Of a stretch of 64,000 nt of DNA, positions 2,976-53,925 are shown piece after piece (position 1 is the first letter of the stretch; the number at the start of each line of letters is the position of its first letter). Location: positions 12,821 through 76,820 of IMG/VR virus record IMGVR_UViG_3300042991_000131, one strand, 5' to 3'. Origin of the DNA: a virus. The translations under genes and the position numbers were made by a program. Under the pieces are notes generated by a model. That model searched no databases. It was not told where the DNA came from and saw only the letters and a program-made list of their open reading frames with translations.

Positions 2976-4331
2976 GTGCGTACTCTCAATCTGATCCCCA
3001 CAATCATCCTGCTGGCCTACGCGAACGACAATGATGCGTTCGTTCCCGAGGTCTGGGCGCAGGAATCCCTGATGATCCTAGAGAATAACATGGTTGCGAC
3101 CAATCTGGTCCACCGTGACTTCTCGAATCAGATCGCTTCGTTTGGTGATGTGGTCAACACCCGCAAGCCCGGCACCTTCACTGCTACACGCAAGGGTAAC
3201 AATGATGATGTGACCGATCAGGATGCAAGCGCGACCAACGTGCCGGTGCCTCTCGATCAGCACCTGCACACCAGTTTCGTCATCAAGGATGGCGAGGAAT
3301 CGAAGAGCATGAAGTCGCTGGTTGAGGAGTACCTCAAGCCGGCTGCTATCTCGCTCGCCGAGGCTGCCGACCAGATCGTTCTCGGTCAGGTCTACAAGTT
3401 CCTGGGCAACGCGGTCGGTAAGCTCGGCACAACGATCACCAAGGATGTGGTCATCGCTGCGCGTGAGAAGATGAACGCGAACAAGGTTCCGCTCCAGGGC
3501 CGCAACTTCCTGATCAGCCCGAACATGGAAGGTGCCCTGCTTGGCATCGCTGATTTCGTCAACGCTGAGAAGGTTGGCGATGATGGCACTGCTCTCCGCG
3601 AAGGTTCGGTCGGCCGCAAGTTCGGCTTCGATACCTACATGGCTCAGCAGGTTCCGTCGATCGTTGGTGCTGCTCAGTCTGCTAGCGTCACTACGACCTC
3701 GGGCTACGCCGCCGGTGTTAGCACTGTTGCTTGCACCACGACCACAACTGCTCTGACAGTTGGTACGTGGGTCACAATCGACGGTCAGCCGTACCAGATC
3801 GCTGCCGGCACAACCGCGACCTCGTTGGTCCTGGCTAGCCCGCTGCGTCAGGCTATCCTGACTGCCTCTGTGGTTGTTCCGTACGCTGCCTCCCTGATCA
3901 ATCAGGTCGGTGGCTACGTTGCTGGTTGGTACAAGGCGATGAACTACGACACAGTGACACCGATCAAGGTCGGTCAGCTGATTTCGTCCGGTGCCGGTAT
4001 CTACTCGGCCATCGGCGGCACGGATGCGACCAAGCTCGTGCTTGATCGCCCCCTGGCTGCGACTGCCGCCGATGATGCCGTCCTGGGTCGCGGCCCGAAC
4101 GGTGAGTATGGCTTCGCGTTCCACCGGAATGCGCTGGCCTTCGTCACCCGCCCGCTTGCCCAGCCCCGCGCTGGCATGGGCGCTCTGTCGTCCGTCGCGT
4201 CGTACAATGGTCTCGGCCTGCGCGTGACCATGACCTACGACGGCAAGGCTCAGGGCACACGTGTGACCCTCGACATGCTGGCTGGTGTCAAGGAACTGGA
4301 TCTGGCTCTCGGCTGCCCGGTCCTTGGCTAA
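2976..4331 (+). CDS. Major capsid protein (P22 coat-like HK97 fold with insertion domain)
   Basis: FVPEVWA, GDVVN.RKP, GRKFGFD.Y, FAFHRNALAFVTRPL, D.L.GVK motifs; GTG start with AAGGA RBS; C/T-ending codons. Confidence 0.88.
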   Translation: MRTLNLIPTIILLAYANDNDAFVPEVWAQESLMILENNMVATNLVHRDFSNQIASFGDVVNTRKPGTFTATRKGNNDDVTDQDASATNVPVPLDQHLHTSFVIKDGEESKSMKSLVEEYLKPAAISLAEAADQIVLGQVYKFLGNAVGKLGTTITKDVVIAAREKMNANKVPLQGRNFLISPNMEGALLGIADFVNAEKVGDDGTALREGSVGRKFGFDTYMAQQVPSIVGAAQSASVTTTSGYAAGVSTVACTTTTTALTVGTWVTIDGQPYQIAAGTTATSLVLASPLRQAILTASVVVPYAASLINQVGGYVAGWYKAMNYDTVTPIKVGQLISSGAGIYSAIGGTDATKLVLDRPLAATAADDAVLGRGPNGEYGFAFHRNALAFVTRPLAQPRAGMGALSSVASYNGLGLRVTMTYDGKAQGTRVTLDMLAGVKELDLALGCPVLG

Positions 4332-7697: not shown

Positions 7698-10600
7698 ATG
7701 CCCGATAACATCTATACGTTAATATTAGACGCAGCACCGTATCTTAAAGGCGCACACGTCGCAGCCGGTGGCAATAAGCTACTTGATGATGCATTCAAGA
7801 CAAGTACACAAGGTGCGCTCGTCTTTAATAGCAAAATGGAAGTTATACAAAAGACTCTTAAAAGTGTGACGTCCTCTGGCGAGATAATGACTAAGACTGT
7901 CAAGCGAATTGGCGATGATTGGTATATTGCATCTACTAAAATGACACAGGGATTAGGTGCCGCTAAGAAAGCTGCTGAGGCACTGGCCGCTGCCGAGGCT
8001 GCTGCTCAAGGCAGATCAGCTACACGCGGCATAGCTTCTGGCCAGGCTGCTGTTGGTATCGTTGGCAAAACACCGCTACCTACTGGTGGTTCGAGCAACG
8101 AGCTACTAGCGTATAATCGTGCATTGGCTGGCCTACAGAAGTTCACGCAGGAAAATGTTACTTCTGCTGCACGTGTACAGAAGGTCTGGACGGATGTTAA
8201 CAACAATGTCTTTTCGGCTAATCCAAAGTATCAAGCTCTGCAGAATCAACTTGTCAAGGTTAAGAATGCCATTGCAGATATTGGTGCTGAGTCACGTAGA
8301 GCTAAAGAATCGTCTGATAATTACTTCTTGTCATGGCGCAATATCATGCGCTTCTTTGAGGCTCGTCTACTCTATAACGGTGTTAGTGATCTTGTTGGTG
8401 CTGTAAAGGCTGGTACGTCAAGGGCAATCGAATTCGAGCAGGTGCTCGGGCGCATCACTACACTAGCACCTACGCTAGCCGGTGGCTACAAAGAGTGGGG
8501 CGAATCCGTTAAGCGTGTAGCTACGACATTTGGCGTCGATGCTACAGATGCTGCTAAATCCTATTACTCTGCACTGTCTAATCAGATCGGTAACAGTATT
8601 CAAGAGATTGAATCGTTCACCAGGACAACTGCTGAGTTTGCCCGTGTCACTGGCTCTACCGCGGAGCAAGCCAACAATTTATTCTCGTCAGCGATTAACG
8701 CCTTTGGTAAGTCTGCCGGTGAAGCTAACGATATTGCTGCCAAGTTCTTCAAGACAATCGACTTGGGCCGCGTCACTGCTGCCGGATTAAGTGGCTCATT
8801 CGGTCGTACAGCCGTTGCTGCAAGCACGTTAGGCGTTAAGTACGAAGAACTACTTGCCTCGCTGTCAACACTCAGTCGTCAAGGTGTGACCGACGCAGAC
8901 GCGCAGACTCAGACTCTTAACTTATTCAATAAGTTAATCAAGCCTACTGAGAAGTTAAAGGAAATGTTGCAGGAGTGGGGCTATGAAAGTGGTCAGGCTC
9001 TAGTAGCAAATGAAGGCTTAGTCGGCGTGTTGCGCCGCTTAGATAAGGAATTACAAGCTAACGGTGTAGCTCGACTCGGCGAGTTAATCAACGATATTCG
9101 TGGTCTACGTGGTACATTTGGTCTAACTGGTAAGGGCTTGCAAGAGTTCAACCACGACTTGGAGTTAATTCGTAATTCTACAGATGATTATCGTAAGGCT
9201 GTCGAGTTAACTGCAGATACAACTGGTCAGAAGTGGGCTAAGCAACTTAATGAAGTTAAGATTGCATTCACAAGCCTAGGACAGAACGCGTTAGGCGTAC
9301 TTGTACCTATATCTGATTTCATTGGCGGGCTGGTTAACGGGATAAAAATATTAATTTCCTCTGTTATAATCTTAGCAACACACATGTATGGTCTGCGTAT
9401 TGCCATACCTGTTATTAATTTCATACGTGATGCTTGGGCTGGTGTGACTTTAGCAGCTAAGCATGCAACATATGCAATAGAACTAGCCAAAGCTGCTGCT
9501 ACATTTGGTATTTCATTAGCCATTGGTGCTATTATCTCGTATTTTGCTTTAGCAGAAAATGCCGCTAAGCGTGGCAAACGGGTGTACGCCGAGGCACAAG
9601 AGGCTACTCGCGAAGCTACAAAGAATGCTCTTGAGTATATAACAAAGGGCTATGATAGATTAGCAAGAAGCATTGAGGACTCATTTAAGCCTGGTCTTGA
9701 TTCCATTGCTTTAACACGCCGCGCATATGTACGAACACTAGCAGAGATTGATGATGGTTTCAAGGATCTTAAGAAGACACTTAAGAGCTTTGAAGATGAA
9801 ACATTCCGTCAACTAGATGACCGCATCAGTGATATAACGAGTAGCCTATCATCGCTACGTAGCGAAACAAAGACACTTGAAGCAGAGCTAAGCAAAGCAT
9901 TCAATGCTGACGAGCTTGCCAACTTCCGCGACACACTTGACGATCTTACAGCCGGCAAGAAAGCCCGTGCTGTCGAAGCTAAGATTAAAGCTGCTTTACA
10001 GGAAGCGACTGGTCTAGCCAGATTATCTCTTACTAAAACAGATGGTGCTGAACGCGCAAAGCTAATCAAGCAGTCGCGTGAGAAGAAAGATATTGCTGAG
10101 TCCTTAGCAACTGATTTGAAGGCACTTGCACGTGAGTCAATTAAGGATAAAGAAGCCGCTGACCGTGATGCAGAGAAGTATACGAAGAAGAACGTTGCAA
10201 GAGAACGTACACAGCTTAAGTTACAGCAAGAGATTAAGACATTAGAAAATGAGAAGCGCGCCAACGCTGGCAAGTTGAAAGATGAATCACGTGAAGATGC
10301 TAATAGGCGCCAGCTTTTATATGCTAGTCAAATTGCCGAGAAGCAAGAAGAACTTAATCGTTACGAGGAAGAAGGTCGTAAGGCGCGTGAACTAGTTAAG
10401 GTTACTACAAGGGATATTTATGAGTATAATAAAGGCATAGTCGATCTTGAAAAGGAACGTGTTGCATTGATTAATGCTCAATTGGATGTGACTAGGTTGA
10501 TGACTAAGGAGAAACAAGCGGAACAGGAATCGTTAAAAAAGACTAAAGAAGGTTTGACAAATATATTTGAAGAGATTAGCGATCTAATGACGAGTAAAGA

Positions 10601-36396: not shown

Positions 36397-37254
36397 ATGG
36401 CTCTTGCATCGACTGTATTAGAAATCCCGATTAGCGAAATATTGATTGACGAGGACTTCAACTGTCGTGGGCAGATTGCGCCTATTGACGTTGTTGATCT
36501 TGCCAAAGATATCGAACGTCAGGGATTAATTCAACCTGTCACAGTGATGGCGGTTGAAGGATTACCAGACGGTAAGAAGTACAAGCTTCTTGCTGGTTTC
36601 CGGCGCTGCAAGGCTCATATTGTTCTGAAGAAGCCGACAATCTCAGCCGTCATACGTCTGGACAAGCTGACCGACGCTGACGCTCGGGTGATTAACCTAG
36701 CTGAGAACCTGCATCGCAAAGACTTAAATGTTCTCCAGGAGGCCAAAGCGATTAGGCATTTGTTCATCTTCTTTGGAGAAGCTGAAGTTGCCAATCGTCT
36801 CGGTCAGTCTCGCGGCTGGGTCCAGATACGTGCCATGCTTCTCAAGCTGCCCGAAGTCGTGCAGAAGGAAGTTGAAGCTGGCATGATTAGCCACACGAAC
36901 ATTCGTGAGCTATATGCGATCCATCGCGCTGGCAACATGGACAATCTCTACGCTGCTGTCCGCAAGATTAAGGACGGTAAGCTCAAAGGCTTGAAGAAGG
37001 TGACAGTTAATCCTGCCATCATCGGCCAAGAGGCTACTGGTAAGTTATTAAGGAATAAGAAAGAAATGGAGGCCATGACAATGTTCCTAGTCGATAGAAA
37101 GTGTAAGGGCCTGCATACTCGATTACTGGCATGGGCAGCTGGAAACGTATCGACAGAAAATATCGTTACTGATATTTCAGCTTGGGCCGATGATCAGGGC
37201 ATCGAGTTCGTTCAACCTACAAAAGAAGAATTAGAGGCAATATGCGCGCGGTGA
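36397..37254 (+). CDS. ParB/Spo0J-like protein 2
   Basis: GLIQPVTV, LLAGFRR, ENLHRKDLN..QEA, HTH. Confidence 0.88.
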   Translation: MALASTVLEIPISEILIDEDFNCRGQIAPIDVVDLAKDIERQGLIQPVTVMAVEGLPDGKKYKLLAGFRRCKAHIVLKKPTISAVIRLDKLTDADARVINLAENLHRKDLNVLQEAKAIRHLFIFFGEAEVANRLGQSRGWVQIRAMLLKLPEVVQKEVEAGMISHTNIRELYAIHRAGNMDNLYAAVRKIKDGKLKGLKKVTVNPAIIGQEATGKLLRNKKEMEAMTMFLVDRKCKGLHTRLLAWAAGNVSTENIVTDISAWADDQGIEFVQPTKEELEAICAR

Positions 37255-39014
37255 CTCCTGAAGTGTTCTTAATTTCCAAGACAAGTGATCTGGAGATTAA
37301 CGAATACATGAAGTCGATTGGTAGTCCGGCCTGGCAACCTGATGATTCAGTTAGCGATAGCGAGAATCTGGTCGAAGCTGCTGGTCGCATGTGCTATCGG
37401 TCTTGGGAGCCTTATAACAGCGAAAAGAAGGACGCTACTAATCCTAACGTCACTCGTGTTCGCAAAGGCAACGCGGCCTACATCGCTAATCTTCTTGAGA
37501 CTGGTCATGGTTGCTACGACAAAGAAACAGAGGTTCTGACAAAAGATGGTTGGAAGTTCTGGGCTGATGTAACGATGACAGATGAGTTTGCCACTATTAA
37601 TACTAAATCATATAAGATTAGCTATCAAAAACCTAGCCGTCTAGTGCGCTTCACGCACAAAGGACGCATGTATCAAGTGGATAGCCCAGAAGTGGATCTA
37701 CTTGTTACACCTAATCACAAGATGTTTGCGTGTGAGACAAGGACAAAGACTGGCCGCAAGAAAGAAAACTACGGGCTAATCATGGCATGGCAGCTTGACT
37801 GCGATAGCCATGCATATATGAAGAACGCAGCTCCGGTGGCAAGTGATGATTTGCTTGAGAGTGATATTGCTTTTGGCAAGCTGTTAGGGTTCGCTATCGG
37901 AGACGGTCATTACAGTCAAGAGCGCCTAGAGTTTCATCTAAGGAAAGAGCGCAAGATTAGCTACCTTCGTAGCATTTGCGACAGCGCCGGACTAAAATTA
38001 GAAGAAGATGGCGACAAGTTCTATGTGCGTTTCAGCACGGTATATGAGAAACAGTGCTTTGAGAATATGTACCAAGCTAATGGTGAGAAGCAGATACCGA
38101 TTAATATAACTGCTATGTGCTTTGAAGAACTCGAAGCTCTATATGACGGGCTAATCAATAGTGACGGCTGCACGACCGACACTGGCATCTGTTATGACAC
38201 AGTTAGCGCTAAGTTAGCCGGTCAGTTTCAGCAACTATGTCTGCATCTTGGCAAATCAGCAAACATCTCGCAAGCCGATTGCTATAAGGATAGAACTACT
38301 TCCTTTGGGACCAAGCCGATTTATCGGTGTTATGTGATTGAGCGCAATAATCGGCCTATTGTCAATAAGGTGAAAGGTGCTAAGGGCAGAACAAACTGGA
38401 TAGAAAACTGGGAAGGCGAAGTGTTCTGTGCTGAAGTCCCTAATCACACGTTGTATGTCAGACGTAACGGTAAGCCAGTTTGGTCTGGTAATTCAGTCCT
38501 AGAACATGCAAACATGACATTCGTCCTCAAGGACGTTAGCCGGGTCGTGACACATGAGCTTGTTCGTCATCGTGCCGGATGCGCCTATTCTCAGGAGTCC
38601 TTACGTTACGTTCGTCTCACCGACATCAAAGCTTCGATTCCTGATTGTTTCGCAAAGAATCCCGAGGCGCTTGCACTGTTCACCAGTACGATTGAACATC
38701 TTGAGTTCGTACAAAGCCAGTTGGCTGAAATCTATAAGACTGACCTCGGTGGAACGGACTTCGCCCGCAAGAAGGAACTCACATCCGCCTTTCGTCGTCT
38801 GGCACCAATTGGATTGGCCACAAGCATCACCTTCACAGCTAACATTCGTGCGCTACGTCATATAATCGAAATGCGTACCGCAATGGCTGCTGAGGCCGAG
38901 ATTAGGCTCGTGTTCAAGCAGGTGGCTACCATCTGCAAGACCGAGCATCCGAATTTCTTCTCCGACATGACAATCGGCTCGGACGGCGTGTGCTCGTTCG
39001 AGCATTCGACCTGA
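37242..39014 (+). CDS. thyX: Flavin-dependent thymidylate synthase with intein
   Basis: GRMCY, GH.SVLEH split by intein, SRVVTHELVRHR..YSQESLRY, NIRALRH. Confidence 0.9.
   Translation: MRAVTPEVFLISKTSDLEINEYMKSIGSPAWQPDDSVSDSENLVEAAGRMCYRSWEPYNSEKKDATNPNVTRVRKGNAAYIANLLETGHGCYDKETEVLTKDGWKFWADVTMTDEFATINTKSYKISYQKPSRLVRFTHKGRMYQVDSPEVDLLVTPNHKMFACETRTKTGRKKENYGLIMAWQLDCDSHAYMKNAAPVASDDLLESDIAFGKLLGFAIGDGHYSQERLEFHLRKERKISYLRSICDSAGLKLEEDGDKFYVRFSTVYEKQCFENMYQANGEKQIPINITAMCFEELEALYDGLINSDGCTTDTGICYDTVSAKLAGQFQQLCLHLGKSANISQADCYKDRTTSFGTKPIYRCYVIERNNRPIVNKVKGAKGRTNWIENWEGEVFCAEVPNHTLYVRRNGKPVWSGNSVLEHANMTFVLKDVSRVVTHELVRHRAGCAYSQESLRYVRLTDIKASIPDCFAKNPEALALFTSTIEHLEFVQSQLAEIYKTDLGGTDFARKKELTSAFRRLAPIGLATSITFTANIRALRHIIEMRTAMAAEAEIRLVFKQVATICKTEHPNFFSDMTIGSDGVCSFEHST
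37512..38492 (+). mobile_element. Intein (327 aa) with LAGLIDADG homing endonuclease
   Basis: Starts CYDKETEVLT, VTPNH block B, LLGFAIGDG and LYDGLINSDG, ends VWSGN before Ser. Confidence 0.9.
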
Positions 39015-40602: not shown

Positions 40603-41208
40603 GTGACCATGACAACGGAAACTATGCCTGCAAATCAAAATCGCGACCCTGGTGAGAAAACTCATCAGGGTAGTTTTGTGTATATTGAAAAGATTATTGA
40701 AGGTTTTCCACATTATGCTATTGCAAACAACGGTAATCTAATAAGTCTAACTAGGTACGTTAAAAATGGCAACGGATTAAAACTAGTTACAAGAAAAGTA
40801 TTGGCAGGTAGCGTCGGTAAAGATGGTTACAAAATAGCTACAATAAGTAATGACACTGAATCGGTCACTGTTAGTCATCACAAACTAGTTGCGGAATATT
40901 TCTTACCCACTAAGCCGACTGATTTGCATGTTCCGAATCATAAAGACGGCATCAAAGTAAATAACCACATTAATAATCTTGAATGGATGACACGGAAGGA
41001 GAATACAGAACATGCTATAGTGGTTTTAGGATGGAAACCAGTTGGTGTTAAAGGGTATGCTAATCCTTTGTGCAAACGTTCTCCGGAACTAATACTTGAA
41101 GTTAAAAGACTAAAGGCATTCGGTATAAAGCAAATAGAAATTGCTAAGACAACTAAATTAAGTCAAACTATTATCTCTAGGATATTAACCGGAGTATACG
41201 ATGCCTAA
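40603..41208 (+). CDS. NUMOD4-HNH homing endonuclease
   Basis: IEGFPHYAIANNG, HKLVA, NHKDGIKVNNHINNLEW. Confidence 0.85.
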   Translation: MTMTTETMPANQNRDPGEKTHQGSFVYIEKIIEGFPHYAIANNGNLISLTRYVKNGNGLKLVTRKVLAGSVGKDGYKIATISNDTESVTVSHHKLVAEYFLPTKPTDLHVPNHKDGIKVNNHINNLEWMTRKENTEHAIVVLGWKPVGVKGYANPLCKRSPELILEVKRLKAFGIKQIEIAKTTKLSQTIISRILTGVYDA

Positions 41209-43726
41209 GTTCACTTACATAGATACTGAGACCTGCGGCCTATACGGCCCAATTGTGCTAATCCAATATGCTCACGACGATGGCGAGGTACAACTCTATT
41301 GCCCGTGGGAAAATCCTGTTATTGATACTTTGAAGCTATTTGAAAGCTTCTTGGAATCTGATTGTCTAGTATTTTTTAACGCGACTTTTGACTGGTTTCA
41401 TATAGTCCAGATGTATACAACGATGTGCTTATTAGACGGTGATAAGGAACCGGACATAGAGGAATATGCGATTGCAGAAGCTAAGGCACACTCTGGACCG
41501 TGTATAAAGCCTAAAAGTGCACTGGATCTGCTACTGCATGCACGAAAAGGGCCATACCAGTCAATGATGGAGCGCGAGGACGTAAGAATCAAGAAGATCC
41601 CGCGTGTGTTAGCTAGTCCGTTAATTGAAGAACTTAATCATCGTATCAAGTTGAAAGATACATATTTTGCGCGTAGGAAGGATCGCAAACAGCGGTGGAA
41701 AGCACATGATATCACGGATGATCTTGGTGATGTTGTGCCTGATTTCGTTGATCTTGTTCTGGCTTTTGCACCAAGTAGTGCCTTAAAAGCCCTGGCCCAA
41801 GATGCTCTCGGCTATGATCCAGATGAGATTACCGTCTTCAAGGATGTTGAGCTTGATCTAACGCTGCGACCTGTTGAGCATGGATTTGCTCCATTTGCTA
41901 TGAGTGTCGGTAAGCCGGGATTAGGTAACTGGAATAAGGCATGGCCGGCTGTAATCAAAGAGCATCTTACACACTGGCGTTTTAATAAAATGGCTCGTGA
42001 GTATGCTAAGGATGACGTTAAGTATACGCGCCAATTACATTATTTCTTCTCAGCACAGATACTTGGTTATTCGGATGACGAAGCTAGGACTATCGCTAAG
42101 AGCGAGAATCCCACTGAATTAATCATGGGTGGTGATGACGACTCGATCCTAGCCTGCATGGTTGCTGGTGTTAGGTGGCGCGGCTACGAGATTAATATTG
42201 AGAAACTGACAGAGCTACGTAAGAGTGCTGTTAAGACACAGGCCGAGTCAAAGTATAACTTCAATAGCGTGGACGTTACACGCAAGTATCTCGGTCAGGT
42301 TCTCACGCCGACCGAGTCTTTGGTTATGTCGCGTGATAACAAGATCAGTACAGAGGGTATAATCCTTGAAGAAATTGCTAAATGGAAGGTTGAGTCCATC
42401 TGCGAGGCATGTGGAGGCATTGGATGCAGTACATGCAGCAATGAAGGGACCATTAAAACAGATGAACGTCATCCCGCAGCCTTGCGGGCGCAAGAGATCC
42501 TTGATTATCGTCACGCCGGTAAGGAAATCGAGCTGTATGATAAGTTGCTTCTTGCGGGTCGATTTTTCGCTAGCTTTAATGTTATTGGCGCACTCTCGGG
42601 TCGAATGTCGGGTGCTGATGCACTTAATCCTCAAGGAATTAAGCGCACTAAAGAAGTACGCTCATGCTTCCCTCTTGCACCAGAAGGTTATCAACTCACT
42701 GGTGGAGATTTCGCTGGATTCGAAGTCTGCCTCGCGGACGCGGTCTACAACGACCCCGAGCTACGAGCCGACCTACTTACCCGTAGACCCTGTAAGAAAT
42801 GCGCCAAGACTACGAAGAAAGCACCCGGCACTGGTGAAGCGTTCGAGTGGGAAAATAACGGCGAGAAGATAGCCCTAGTCAAACATGCTAACTGTGGAGA
42901 CTGTGCCGGCACTGGATTAGAAGATACCAAGATCCACGCGCTATTCGGACAGTTCCTGTTTCCGCCAAATACTTACGATCAGATTTATGATAGTAAGGGA
43001 TTACCCGGCGATAAGGATCTATACTCACGCAGTAAGCAGGGTGTGTTCGCGCTGCTGTATGGTGGTGAAGCTTACACACTTGTTACTAGGACAGGCGTCC
43101 AAGAGGCTGTCGCTAATGAAGCCTATCAACGTTGGATCCAACGGTATCTAGTGTGGGGCGAAGCTCGTAAGAAGATTATCACCATGTTCTGCTCCATGAA
43201 GCAGACTGGCGGGCTAGGTAGCAAGGTCGAGTGGGAAGATCCTGCCGATTACATCGAGTCCATGCTTGGCTTCAAGCGTTACTTTACTCTTGAGAACATG
43301 ATCTGCAAGGCACTGTTCCAATTAGCTGAAGATCCGCCTAAGGAATGGTTCAAGTTCAAGATTAAGGTCGTACGTCGGGATCGCGAGCAGACGGTAGCCG
43401 GTGCCGTTCGTAGTGCGCTCTTCGGAGCAGCTTTCGCGATCCAAGCTGGTAACATGCGTGCTGCTGCTAATCACGTTATCCAGTCGTCTGGCGCGCAGAT
43501 TACCAAGCAGTTGCAGTGCAAGTTGTGGGAGATTCAACCTGCTGGCGTGCATGAATGGCTAGTCATTCCGATGAATATTCATGACGAAATCATGAACCCA
43601 TGCAAGCCGCATGTCGTGCCACTTATCCAGCCGATTATCGACGCGTTCATAACCAATCTGCGTACATACGTGCCTCTAGCTGGCATTGACTGGTCTAATA
43701 ACCTAAAGACATGGGCTGATAAATGA
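41201..43726 (+). CDS. Family A DNA polymerase with 3'-5' exonuclease
   Basis: DTET, FNATFD, SGRMS, DFAGFE (A), KQGVFALLYG (B), IHDEI (C). Confidence 0.88.
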   Translation: MPKFTYIDTETCGLYGPIVLIQYAHDDGEVQLYCPWENPVIDTLKLFESFLESDCLVFFNATFDWFHIVQMYTTMCLLDGDKEPDIEEYAIAEAKAHSGPCIKPKSALDLLLHARKGPYQSMMEREDVRIKKIPRVLASPLIEELNHRIKLKDTYFARRKDRKQRWKAHDITDDLGDVVPDFVDLVLAFAPSSALKALAQDALGYDPDEITVFKDVELDLTLRPVEHGFAPFAMSVGKPGLGNWNKAWPAVIKEHLTHWRFNKMAREYAKDDVKYTRQLHYFFSAQILGYSDDEARTIAKSENPTELIMGGDDDSILACMVAGVRWRGYEINIEKLTELRKSAVKTQAESKYNFNSVDVTRKYLGQVLTPTESLVMSRDNKISTEGIILEEIAKWKVESICEACGGIGCSTCSNEGTIKTDERHPAALRAQEILDYRHAGKEIELYDKLLLAGRFFASFNVIGALSGRMSGADALNPQGIKRTKEVRSCFPLAPEGYQLTGGDFAGFEVCLADAVYNDPELRADLLTRRPCKKCAKTTKKAPGTGEAFEWENNGEKIALVKHANCGDCAGTGLEDTKIHALFGQFLFPPNTYDQIYDSKGLPGDKDLYSRSKQGVFALLYGGEAYTLVTRTGVQEAVANEAYQRWIQRYLVWGEARKKIITMFCSMKQTGGLGSKVEWEDPADYIESMLGFKRYFTLENMICKALFQLAEDPPKEWFKFKIKVVRRDREQTVAGAVRSALFGAAFAIQAGNMRAAANHVIQSSGAQITKQLQCKLWEIQPAGVHEWLVIPMNIHDEIMNPCKPHVVPLIQPIIDAFITNLRTYVPLAGIDWSNNLKTWADK

Positions 43727-49957: not shown

Positions 49958-50173
49958 ATGACCGCATATGCATCAATCAACTTCAAGACGAAGAAGGCTC
50001 TCAAGGAGGCCGTCCAACGCGGTGAACGGATTACGGTCCGTTCAATCACACCCATGGGAACGAATCAGGTCACCAGCGGCAAGGAGGCCATCGCCGGTCC
50101 TTGGTATCCTGAACCGCACAAGTGGTACGCTCAGGTGGTAATTACGGACGGTAAGATCACGAGCGTCAAGTAA
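49958..50173 (+). CDS. Small early protein
   Basis: ATG 49958; strong codon bias. Confidence 0.65.
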   Translation: MTAYASINFKTKKALKEAVQRGERITVRSITPMGTNQVTSGKEAIAGPWYPEPHKWYAQVVITDGKITSVK

Positions 50174-50222
50174 TCACGAGAACCCAGCTACTATAGTGGT
50201 AGCTGGGTTCAAGTGTCAACCC
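50171..50222 (+). repeat. Early-region intergenic hairpin element, copy 1
   Basis: TAATCACGA-[GAACCCAGCTAC/GTAGCTGGGTTC]-AAGTGTCAACCC. Confidence 0.75.
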
Positions 50223-50233
50223 AAGGAACCCTT

Positions 50234-50434
50234 ATGAACGCAGCCTCCTGTTTCTCAGTCCATGCAGGTAGCATGGGCGACGGTGTCCCGCGCTGGATGG
50301 TACGCTCATCAATCCGCCAGGCCAAGACGCATGGCTGTAATCAGTTTCCGAGCGACGGACCACGTGGCAATCGGGCTGGTGTCGCCTACTGCTTCAAGTA
50401 CCGGGCCGCGCCGGCTGAGTACAGGAAGGACTGA
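50234..50434 (+). CDS. Small early protein
   Basis: AAGGA RBS, ATG 50234. Confidence 0.5.
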   Translation: MNAASCFSVHAGSMGDGVPRWMVRSSIRQAKTHGCNQFPSDGPRGNRAGVAYCFKYRAAPAEYRKD

Positions 50435-50437
50435 GCC

Positions 50438-50653
50438 ATGCATGCCAACGACTTCATCACGAAGCGTGAAAAGCTGTGCAAGGCTCGGCATCGCGAGATA
50501 ATCACGCAGGCTATATTCACCATGCAGATGCATCTGCTCTTTTGTGAGGCTCAGCTGAGCAAGGGCTGGGATGACGACGCCGAGAAAAGCGACGAGGTCT
50601 ACGAGACCTGGGTCGACCAGCTTGAGGCAGAGATAGAGGCGCTGAGCAAATAA
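50438..50653 (+). CDS. Small early protein
   Basis: RBS; acidic C-terminus. Confidence 0.55.
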   Translation: MHANDFITKREKLCKARHREIITQAIFTMQMHLLFCEAQLSKGWDDDAEKSDEVYETWVDQLEAEIEALSK

Positions 50654-50702
50654 CTTGTAGGCCAGGTCGGATTATCCGGCCTGGCCTTAAGTGTCGAACC
50701 CC
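50651..50702 (+). repeat. Early-region intergenic hairpin element, copy 2 (divergent)
   Basis: AGGCCAGGTCGGA-TTA-TCCGGCCTGGCCT-TAAGTGTCGAACCC. Confidence 0.6.
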
Positions 50703-51786: not shown

Positions 51787-52000
51787 AGTAATCGAAACGA
51801 TGTGTCTCTTGACACATGACGCCAATGATGTGTCAATTGAGGTTGAGTACGAGACGATTATCGTCAAGGCACAGAAGGTGAACAGTTTCTCGATGCGCTG
51901 GTCATATGAGGGCTACGGCAACGAGCGCGTGCGACAGATTGCTAAAGAGTATCACTTAGTGCTGATGAAAGCTCAGCGTGAAGAGAATAAGCCTTACTAA
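51764..52000 (+). CDS. Hypothetical protein
   Basis: Operon packing. Confidence 0.5.
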   Translation: MNIHSPAEVIETMCLLTHDANDVSIEVEYETIIVKAQKVNSFSMRWSYEGYGNERVRQIAKEYHLVLMKAQREENKPY

Positions 52001-52007
52001 AGGAAAC

Positions 52008-52344
52008 ATGACACAAACTATACAATCAATACGTGTGCTTACAACAGCATATAAGCTAGGCTACAGAATAACAAAAGCTGGTATAGCGTTGGGTCCTAAT
52101 TTTAATCTGCTCAGGCAAGAAACACCAGATTAAAGTACATAGACTACAAGCATATCAGAAGTATGGTGACAAAATATTTGAGAAATACTTAGAAGTTAGA
52201 CACAAGAATAGCAATAAAATGGACAATACTTGGGATAATATTTTATTAGGCACTCATAGTGCCAATATGATGGATGTACCTAGAGAAGTTAGAGTTGAGC
52301 GTGCAATTAATGCCAATAATCTAAAATTGGCAACTCCGTACTGA
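52008..52344 (+). pseudogene. Frameshifted HNH endonuclease
   Basis: 41-aa ORF ending TAA, then +1 frame VHRLQAYQKYGDKIF...VRHKNSNKMDN.WDNI homologous to 24838-25359. Confidence 0.75.
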
Positions 52345-52454
52345 TGAGTCCTGAGTGGACGAAACATGGTTAGCTTGAACCGAGTGGTGCGTTACTAAAG
52401 GGTGAAACCCTTTGACCCTCACCTAAATAGCTAATCATGTATACGGCAGAGAGT
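52333..52454 (+). ncRNA. Type I hammerhead ribozyme
   Basis: Stem I CCGTA/TACGG, CTGATGA core, stem II GTCC/GGAC, GAAA, 11-bp stem III, GUA cleavage triplet ending 52441. Confidence 0.9.
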
Positions 52455-53146
52455 AATCGATGGTGAACGTGCTATAAGCACCGGATGGCCTCCCTGGCTG
52501 TTCACTGACCAAGATTACTCGAAGCAAAGTGGCCATAAGCCAGCCACTGAAAACATATAGGCATAGGATTAAGGCAGCAGGATCAAAGACGTAGTGCCGG
52601 AACAAGGGTACAAGATACGGGAAACAAGTTGGGACAATCCGAAAGGAGGGAGCCTGCTGAGTTACCGGTTGCCTGTGACGCTACATAATCTTTGGGAACA
52701 TACGGTTGGCTTAGCCAACAAACCGAAGCCGGTGACATGGCTGCGGTGCTGCTGATTGCTGGGAACGGTGTAGCTGACGCTACACGCCTGAGACCCTATC
52801 CGGCTTAGTCACCCAATCAGTGACCGGACAAATATGGGATACGAGCGTCAACTCGCGGCCCTAGATAATAGAGAAGATGGTAGGACCTACTATCTAATCC
52901 ATCAGTGGGGACGCGCCGATAGTCGCAGGCCCACATTAATCTCTAAGGTGCTAGTAAGTATATTGTGGAAGCTGTAATCGCGATTCCCTTAGGTGGAGCA
53001 GCGACCAGTCAGCGGACTTCTGGCCTAGTACCTGACAAGCTAATCGGCCGCACGGTTGGCCTCTGTTAATGAGCGGAAGGTGTACCGGATGTTTGCCGTG
53101 TCCGGAACCATAGACAGGATTAGGGCAACCTGATTCAACGGCGTTT
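52451..53146 (+). ncRNA. Candidate large structured ncRNA (~700 nt)
   Basis: No ORF of 60 aa or more; many nested helices, GNRA loops, two possible pseudoknots; between ribozyme and tRNA array. Confidence 0.6.
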
Positions 53147-53229
53147 CGGGGTATGTTGGAATAGCAGACAAAACTGATTTAAAATCAGTCGGCAGAAATG
53201 CCATCCGAGTGCAAGTCTCGGTACCCCGA
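53147..53229 (+). tRNA. tRNA-Leu(TAA)
   Basis: CGGGGTA/TACCCCG, loop TTTAAAA, long variable arm, no encoded CCA. Confidence 0.85.
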
Positions 53230-53234
53230 TTAAT

Positions 53235-53318
53235 GCCTGTATGGCGTAACTAGCAGCCGCGATAGCTTTAGGAGCTATTGTCCGTAAGGACGTGTCAGTG
53301 CAAGTCTGACTACAGGTA
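53235..53318 (+). tRNA. tRNA-Leu(TAG)
   Basis: GCCTGTA/TACAGGT, loop TTTAGGA, long variable arm. Confidence 0.85.
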
Positions 53319-53325
53319 ATCTTTT

Positions 53326-53400
53326 GGGCCGTTCGTACAACGGTTAGTACACGGGTCTTATAAGCCTGTTACGATTGTTCGACTCAATCACGGCCTACCA
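53326..53400 (+). tRNA. tRNA-Ile(TAT)
   Basis: GGGCCGT/ACGGCCT, loop CTTATAA, TTCGACT, encoded CCA. Confidence 0.85.
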
Positions 53401-53411
53401 CAAGGATAATC

Positions 53412-53879
53412 ATGGCAGTCTGGAGACAAACAACACTGGTAGATTATTTAGAAGTTAGCGACGAGGGTGGACTTAGAAACAAGCACACCAAGTTACCATA
53501 TGAACTGTCTATGACTAAGAGCGGATACTACAGTATCCACGTGACAGCACATGAGAAATATTTCCTGCACGTGCTTATAGCCGCAGCTTTCTTAGGTCCG
53601 GCAAACGGATTAGAGGTTGATCATAAGGATAGAAATAAGCGCAATAATCGGCTGACTAATCTTTGGTATAGAACTCACGCTCAGAATTGTCAGAATAGAA
53701 TTAGCAATAATAAGGGCGTATTAAATAATACTACAAGGTTAACTGAGAATGACGTTAAAGAGATTAGAAGGCAGTGCCTATTTGGCATTACTTATGCAGA
53801 ATTAGGTAGGAAGTACAAAATGCACCCTGATTCAGTCAGAAGTGCAGCAGTCGGTAAAACTTGGTCACATATTAAGTAA
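53412..53879 (+). CDS. HNH homing endonuclease with C-terminal HTH
   Basis: LHVLIA.AF...VDHKDRNKRNNRLTNL. Confidence 0.85.
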   Translation: MAVWRQTTLVDYLEVSDEGGLRNKHTKLPYELSMTKSGYYSIHVTAHEKYFLHVLIAAAFLGPANGLEVDHKDRNKRNNRLTNLWYRTHAQNCQNRISNNKGVLNNTTRLTENDVKEIRRQCLFGITYAELGRKYKMHPDSVRSAAVGKTWSHIK

Positions 53880-53925
53880 CCAGCAGCTAATTGCTGCATA
53901 ACGCCGTAAGGCACTAGGATAGAAA

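Follow-up and report, generated by a model that had tools for sequence, protein, structure and literature searches.

What does a phage encode in some 700 nucleotides that hold no open reading frame (ORF) of 60 amino acids (aa) or more, begin at a hammerhead ribozyme motif and run directly into tRNA genes? We addressed this question for positions 52008-53879 of a 64-kb window, the whole stretch of DNA analysed here, which comprises bases 12821-76820 of a 76.8-kb IMG/VR phage contig with an estimated completeness of 83% (all positions without another source are those of the window) and carries genes for a P22-type coat protein, a family A DNA polymerase and a ThyX protein with a LAGLIDADG insert. 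From ~31 kb to the window end all larger genes (≥200 aa) point rightward, and within this long unit a decayed HNH gene, a hammerhead, a ~705-nt RNA candidate outside the Rfam families, three tRNA genes and an intact HNH gene follow one another:

52008-52341, + strand: frameshifted HNH_3 endonuclease gene, with an N-terminal piece (52008-52130) in one frame and the HNH_3 frame (52087-52341) in the next.
52336-52446, + strand: type I hammerhead ribozyme motif with a predicted cut between A52441 and U52442, its core read from the sequence, the minimum-free-energy (MFE) fold and a descriptor.
52442-53146, + strand: candidate large structured RNA, ~705 nt, ORF-free, extending from the predicted cut as far as tRNA-Leu.
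53147-53400, + strand: three tRNA genes, found by ARAGORN and scoring 45.7, 41.9 and 56.9 bits with the Rfam tRNA model.
53412-53879, + strand: intact free-standing gene for a homing-type HNH_3 endonuclease of 155 aa (Pfam HNH_3, 49.5 bits).

We consider it probable that this arrangement is a homing-endonuclease-linked RNA island, from which a large RNA is freed by the hammerhead at its 5′ end and by RNase P at its 3′ end.

The predicted 5′ end depends on the hammerhead, whose core consists of CUGAUGA (52341-52347), GAA (52361-52363) and the pair A52364-U52440 in the place of A15.1-U16.1, with A52441 at position 17 (H17), the cleavage-site base, which is any base other than G. Stem I pairs CCGUA (52336-52340) with UACGG (52442-52446), stem II is the hairpin GUCC-UGAGU-GGAC (52348-52360) of 4 bp, and stem III has 11 pairs (52364-52374 with 52430-52440) around an insert of 55 nt (52375-52429). 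The MFE fold of 52330-52450 is the expected three-way junction with A52441 unpaired (z −3.2), in which stem I is open with 5 plus 2 bp, while stem II (4 bp) and stem III (11 bp plus the insert) are closed. A strict type I descriptor, which called for the core, at least 4 pairs per stem, A-U at 15.1/16.1 and a non-G at position 17, matched once on the two strands of the window and four times in 300 dinucleotide shuffles of it (0.013 per shuffled window), and none of the 300 shuffles combined a stem III of at least 8 pairs with a stem I of at least 5. The motif is canonical and beyond chance; the complete hammerhead with a predicted cut after A52441 that the initial annotation had proposed is borne out by all core positions, the three helices, the MFE junction and the shuffle statistics.

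Rfam at its gathering threshold does not report this hammerhead, and a scan of an 821-nt query returned only a truncated core match of 20 bits to the type III model Hammerhead_3 (E 0.2; cut-off 48.5). The missing full match is not evidence against the motif, because a compact, bona fide-looking type I hammerhead that served as a control (2177-2225 of the phage locus L145) also falls below its cut-off (30.5 bits against 34) and most of the hammerheads in 12 sampled phage loci are likewise missed at the gathering threshold. Given these misses, annotation pipelines will under-report phage type I hammerheads.

Phage and prophage type I hammerheads have been proposed to cut long polycistronic transcripts into units (PMC3088659, Perreault et al. 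2011). Like members of this family (RF00163, clan CL00010), the motif has a canonical core and an open stem I and lies between genes of what is probably a long phage transcript. Unlike most of them, it has a large structured insert in stem III; its score is under the Rfam cut-off, and its predicted product is a large non-coding RNA rather than a messenger RNA (mRNA). The insert is unusual: 128 phage hammerheads with the same stem II include 92 complete type I motifs, and stem III is compact in about 85% of these. Loop II GAGU (52353-52356) could pair with ACUC (52333-52336) on the 5′ side of stem I, a contact that is short, overlaps stem I and is without comparative support. The strict descriptor found no match in ~0.9 Mb of related-phage loci.

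Between the predicted cut and the first tRNA, the longest ORFs (52442-53146) are 56, 54 and 53 aa long, so that the initial claim of ~705 nt free of ORFs of 60 aa or more stands; the small ORFs match no Pfam or PHROG family, and 52001-53145 is the sole ORF-free gap of at least 450 nt in the window. The G+C content of the ORF-free stretch is 52%, against 35-40% in the HNH genes. A cmscan of 1.6 kb and of 0.8 kb of the region with the complete Rfam 15 set (4227 families; E up to 10) reported nothing except the tRNAs and the partial hammerhead core, in agreement with the proposal that this is an undescribed RNA. The same all-family scan gave no match to GOLLD, and the group I and group II intron models also found nothing at E up to 10, nor was an interrupted host gene seen. 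The ROOL model (RF03087) run alone had no match in the region and none in the control genomes either, which makes this run weak by itself, and the all-family scans were likewise negative for it. ARAGORN and the Rfam scans found no tRNA-like or ribozyme element inside the 705-nt stretch. Words resembling a T-box or a tetraloop receptor were noticed there and set aside, as no model supports them. The idea that this RNA guides the HNH protein, as in HEARO/IscB, was rejected as well, the protein being a 155-aa HNH_3 protein without RuvC and the stretch being without an Rfam match.

To see how the stretch varies in nature, we turned to the 22 public sequencing runs (13 studies) that contain words of it and compared contigs of four, namely freshwater sediment DNA (X2), two wastewater studies (X3 and X4) and an RNA library of the X2 sample (X13). 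Their cover is partial, with the HNH pseudogene uncovered in X3 and the X13 cover confined to 52564-52968, and uncovered parts do not equal absence. The contigs derive from phages related to, yet different from, the window phage: flanking protein genes are 84-90% identical (94% in one X4 piece), and the HNH pseudogene is ~86-89% identical in the X2 contigs. By contrast, identity reaches 99% over 52357-52584, 98.8-100% over 52927-53137 and 99% over the tRNAs, and the intact HNH gene is 99% identical in the X2 and X4 contigs. Over the 3′ part, 0 of 163 nt differ in X4, 2 of 171 nt in X3 and 4 of 312 nt in X2; over 52951-53072, an additional X3 contig reaches only 87% identity. Four elements of the candidate RNA stand out in this comparison:

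52451-52520, + strand: helix GAGUAAUC (52451-52458) with GAUUACUC (52513-52520), closing a variable domain (52459-52512), pair probability 0.998-1.0.
52583-52695, + strand: helix UCAAAGA (52583-52589) with UCUUUGG (52689-52695), closing an optional domain of ~100 nt, seen from contig variants.
52875-52895, + strand: hypervariable terminal hairpin AGAUGGUAG-GAC-CUACUAUCU, with GAC as its loop and 9 pairs, seen from contig variants.
52927-53137, + strand: most conserved 3′ part of the RNA, with a GCAA-capped 8-bp hairpin (53117-53136) at its end.

Where the stretch does change, it changes in a manner that suggests structure. An X2 contig carries 77 other letters in place of the 53 nt between GAGUAAUC and GAUUACUC and retains both strands of the helix. 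The 105-109 nt at about 52585-52693 are replaced by the 12 letters CAGAGAAACCUG in X3 and by the 6 letters GGAAAC in X4, and the closing helix, UCAAAGA/UCUUUGG in the window, reads UCAAG(GAAA)CUUGG in X4 and UCCAG(AGAAAC)CUGGG in X3 (loop letters in brackets), so that its third pair shows a compensatory double change from A-U to C-G; local folds of the window, X3 and X4 versions all yield this helix. The hairpin at 52875-52895 is exchanged in one X3 contig for an unrelated 7-bp hairpin, GAUGACC(UAUA)GGUCAUC, between the same flanks, and in another it has indels of 1, 2, 3, 1, 1 and 3 nt, several of which are not multiples of three and would not be tolerated by a coding sequence. These patterns are suggestive of a stretch that behaves, over 52442-53146, as a structured non-coding RNA in related sequences.

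The order of elements varies in the same contigs. In one X2 contig the HNH pseudogene is followed by the 5′ half of the ribozyme, by 42 letters that replace 87, and then by the cleavage site and the RNA; judged by their length, the 42 letters would be enough for a compact stem II/III. One X3 contig joins 51998 to 52357 and skips the HNH pseudogene, with intervening letters possible between the two sides. Contigs of X2 and X3 run from the RNA into tRNA-Leu, and a different tRNA follows in X3. The content on either side of the RNA thus varies between samples, and because X3 swaps the later tRNA and skips the pseudogene, the RNA and the first tRNA appear as a constant core in otherwise modular surroundings. 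Variants of the island occur in wastewater and freshwater sediment runs of three studies. Contigs of the X13 RNA library cover 52564-52761 and 52796-52968, a weak hint of a transcribed RNA, as DNA carry-over is possible in such libraries.

Several results weigh against the island reading. The dense helices attributed to the stretch by the initial annotation are apparent for the whole 704 nt (folding z −3.5) but not for its parts, since 350-nt windows (z −0.9 to −3.2) are not more stable than the coding DNA nearby. Identity in the central part (52694-52977) drops to about 91-95%, near the level of the flanking genes, and the identity of the package as a whole could reflect recent nuclease-driven transfer instead of selection on an RNA. 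Global folding of the window sequence does not predict the helix at 52583/52695 (ensemble P 0.001), and there is a penalty of 6.4 kcal/mol when this helix is imposed. Variants of the hairpin in the stem III insert and of a hairpin at 52767-52788 were ambiguous on refolding and were not counted, leaving as comparative support one compensatory pair and two or three structure-keeping replacements in a few short contigs of close relatives, which does not constitute a covariation test. One X3 contig alignment begins at 52357, so that the 5′ half of the hammerhead is unseen there. In addition, the whole records of 44 phages related by their DNA polymerase gave no significant match and the RNA is absent from them; the linkage of ribozyme, RNA and tRNA that was expected in related phage contigs is seen in close relatives, which come from three or more studies.

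The alternative that survives best accepts the hammerhead and the tRNAs as real and takes the 705 nt as a processing leader or spacer of a tRNA operon, or as small independent RNA modules with cassette filler between them, the hammerhead merely splitting the upstream message from the tRNA precursor. Hammerheads are indeed common in phage tRNA arrays that have no large RNA, the segments 52459-52512, 52590-52688 and 52870-52900 are freely replaceable, and the folding energy is ordinary, with no long-range helix supported by comparison. A leader or a set of modules would not be expected, however, to keep its 5′ and 3′ parts 98-100% identical where flanking genes differ by 10-16%, nor to retain closing helices and hairpins where segments are replaced, and the tRNA-like or ribozyme elements that might divide the stretch were not found inside it; we regard this explanation as unlikely.

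It is also conceivable that the stretch is decaying, non-functional DNA, a dead gene or a homing scar that hitch-hikes with the HNH gene, in which case its identity between phages would result from recent gene conversion. The T4 tRNA region is an established case of homing in which flanks are co-converted (PMC2330249), the adjacent HNH gene is equally conserved (99%), and an HNH pseudogene lies on the other side. Such DNA would hardly exchange hairpin for hairpin with its closing helices kept and one pair compensated, and the protein homology that a dead gene might have left is absent from every small ORF (Pfam, PHROG); the G+C content differs from that of the HNH genes, and the hammerhead is retained ahead of the stretch, all of which makes this explanation decidedly improbable. 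A catalogued RNA (GOLLD, ROOL, RNase P RNA, or a group I or II intron) that has diverged too far for the models to recognize would fit the size, phage origin and tRNA neighbourhood of GOLLD and ROOL (PMC12286853) and a best-conserved 3′ part as in GOLLD, but the scan of the 4227 families and the separate ROOL run, both without such a match, leave it with hardly any probability.

We return to the island reading and its flanks, where the HNH pseudogene, the three tRNAs and the intact HNH gene listed by the initial annotation were all recovered. The HNH_3 domain frame of the broken gene matches Pfam HNH_3 at 38.5 bits (E 8.7e-10), and its stop codons TGA TGA (52342-52347) double as UGAUGA in the ribozyme's CUGAUGA box. 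The intact HNH protein is about 31-34% identical to annotated phage HNH homing endonucleases. The tRNAs, assigned by ARAGORN and Rfam, are Leu(UAA) at 53147-53229, Leu(UAG) at 53235-53318 and Ile(UAU) at 53326-53400; the CCA end is encoded in tRNA-Ile(UAU) only and in neither tRNA-Leu gene, and the first pair of tRNA-Leu(UAA) is C1-G72. The HNH start codon lies 11 nt 3′ of tRNA-Ile, so tRNA processing would leave the HNH message with an 11-nt leader. On the + strand no promoter-like or terminator-like site was predicted between 50537 and 55438, which makes it probable that the island is read within a long transcript.

Two further parts of the window deserve mention. The ThyX (Thy1) protein (37242-39014) is 590 aa long with a LAGLIDADG_3 domain in its middle, which probably represents an intein or the insertion of a homing endonuclease. 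At 50001-50700, in a region of hairpin cassettes, the + strand folds well beyond shuffles (z −3.7 to −6.1) and also beyond the − strand.

The phage lineage appears to be uncultured. A tblastn search of 50,697 cultured phage records (E 1e-5) found no counterpart of its family A DNA polymerase (41201-43726), and the 45 polymerase relatives found in IMG/VR share at most 55% polymerase identity with it. A blastn search with 'distant' settings for 52000-53900 in the same 50,697 records was without a match, the neighbouring proteins had no relatives in IMG/VR, and exact words from the conserved parts occurred nowhere in IMG/VR. In IMG/VR, 119 loci share the hammerhead stem II, but their resemblance to the window ends at the ribozyme core, and 23 IMG/VR loci with HNH relatives (≤45% identity over any substantial stretch) show no similarity to the island. 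A sole match among JGI metagenomes (L059) proved to be a chance match in a GroEL-bearing bacterial contig, and two in GTDB genomes (L203 and L204) were chance matches as well. The RNA family is known from the window and the public-run contigs only.

Although similar sequences are confined to close relatives, hammerheads in comparable positions are not. Among the 128 IMG/VR phage hammerheads that share stem II GUCC/GGAC, 18 are accompanied by tRNA genes in the interval from −1.5 to +2 kb, and these tRNAs lie without exception on the ribozyme's own strand. Several lie inside arrays of 10-26 tRNAs (L089/L145, L118, L122, L160, L086 and L079), and L122 has two hammerheads 150 nt apart. In L118 (8395-8525), a type I hammerhead in a tRNA array has the 5′ acceptor strand of tRNA-Tyr as its stem I; its predicted cut after C8442 falls directly before the first base of the tRNA (8443) and would give the tRNA its 5′ end without RNase P. 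Because of these 18 cases and the position of the L118 cut, hammerheads appear to recur as end-makers in phage RNA-gene clusters.

Other RNA elements were seen in the same loci. In L145, a 1062-nt ORF-free stretch (490-1551; G+C 0.50) immediately precedes a hammerhead-containing array of at least 26 tRNAs; it is without similarity to the window RNA, its best Rfam match is Y-RNA-like and unconvincing (19 bits, E 0.88), and it is possibly another unclassified large phage RNA. L173 has a type III hammerhead (621-675) and a hatchet ribozyme (3955-4102) in one phage locus, and L160 has a COG2908 RNA inside its tRNA array (8322-8366).

A parallel in layout was found in the cultured Pseudomonas phage PaBG (NC_022096), which has a CUGAUGA...GAAAC hammerhead core (3066-3142 of locus L206, predicted cut after A3137) and then ~660 nt, largely ORF-free, before a tRNA-Ala. 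As in the window, hammerhead core, stretch and tRNA lie on one strand; unlike the window, PaBG has an elaborate stem II, which includes a T-loop-like hairpin (GGUUCAAGUCC), and an unannotated hydrophobic ORF of 60 aa (3607-3789) in the last 180 nt of the stretch. The sequences differ, with no similarity between the window RNA and the PaBG stretch by blastn or nhmmer. The PaBG region (L206 3066-3796) corresponds to NC_022096 121565-122295, where the hammerhead is unannotated.

These comparisons place the candidate RNA among known systems. GOLLD and ROOL are large 'ornate' RNAs of phages and prophages that occur near phage tRNA islands (PMC12286853, PMC5737381), and the window RNA fits the description of that kind (500-800 nt, phage-encoded, non-coding, tRNA-adjacent), being a several-hundred-nucleotide stretch directly beside tRNA genes with many hairpins closed by GNRA-type loops, a variable periphery and a better conserved 3′ part. 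Unlike GOLLD and ROOL, it has neither a covariance-model match nor detectable sequence similarity to them, and its 5′ end is putatively set by a hammerhead, which we found described for neither class. Judged by sequence and layout, the 705-nt RNA would be a new family of this known general kind, large phage RNAs beside tRNAs. In the literature we found no paper describing a hammerhead-led large RNA beside tRNA genes, nor a predicted ribozyme-defined 5′ end for such an RNA.

HDV-like theta ribozymes, which trim phage tRNAs (PMC10879173), resemble the window hammerhead and those of the tRNA arrays in that a small self-cleaving ribozyme in a phage RNA-gene cluster is predicted to produce an end without a host nuclease. 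They act at tRNA 3′ ends, whereas in the window the 705-nt RNA would owe its 5′ end to the hammerhead and its 3′ end to RNase P. The HNH gene has its counterparts in T4, where the homing nuclease SegB drives inheritance of the tRNA region (PMC2330249) and MobE is a free-standing homing endonuclease in that region (PMC2790892). Both settings share a free-standing nuclease gene beside tRNA genes and a region preferentially inherited or conserved relative to the rest of the genome; the window protein is an HNH_3 and not a GIY-YIG enzyme, and its homing is suggested by the pattern of identity.

From what we observed, namely the motifs, their layout and how the stretch varies in nature, we infer the following course for transcription, both cuts, stability, function and homing. 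The island would be transcribed within a long + strand transcript, in which the hammerhead would cut itself between A52441 and U52442, detach the upstream message and leave the large RNA with a 5′-OH end, which would also protect it from 5′-end-dependent decay. Host RNase P, following the general course of tRNA maturation, would cut before C53147, the first base of tRNA-Leu. RNase P leaves a 3′-OH, and the RNA would acquire such an end; a circular RNA was rejected on this ground and because there is a single ribozyme only. The freed 705-nt RNA may then fold into conserved 5′ and 3′ parts with swappable peripheral hairpins, as the natural variants indicate in part, and may work during infection as a trans-acting structural RNA comparable to GOLLD and ROOL. 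The neighbouring HNH nuclease would spread the package among related phages by homing, which would explain why the package (98-100%) is far more alike between phages than the flanking genes (84-90%).

A broader proposal is more tentative, and we would place it somewhat short of an even chance: the RNA may found a new class of large structured phage RNA, one form of a wider and hitherto unpublished kind that lies beside tRNA genes, takes its 5′ end from a hammerhead and its 3′ end from RNase P, and occurs with unlike sequences in unrelated phages such as PaBG. Such RNAs would be stable and act in trans, possibly self-assembling like GOLLD and ROOL, and would travel as cassettes with homing nucleases.

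Few large, intricate bacterial and phage RNAs without a known function have been recognized (OLE, GOLLD, ROOL, raiA and HEARO), and each has opened new biology. For the RNA described here, both ends are predictable to the nucleotide, so that the mature molecule can be made and studied directly, and natural 'minimised' variants show which domains are dispensable. If the hammerhead-led layout is general, it would provide a simple rule for finding further phage RNAs and a concrete job for phage hammerheads, whose role has been open since 2011.

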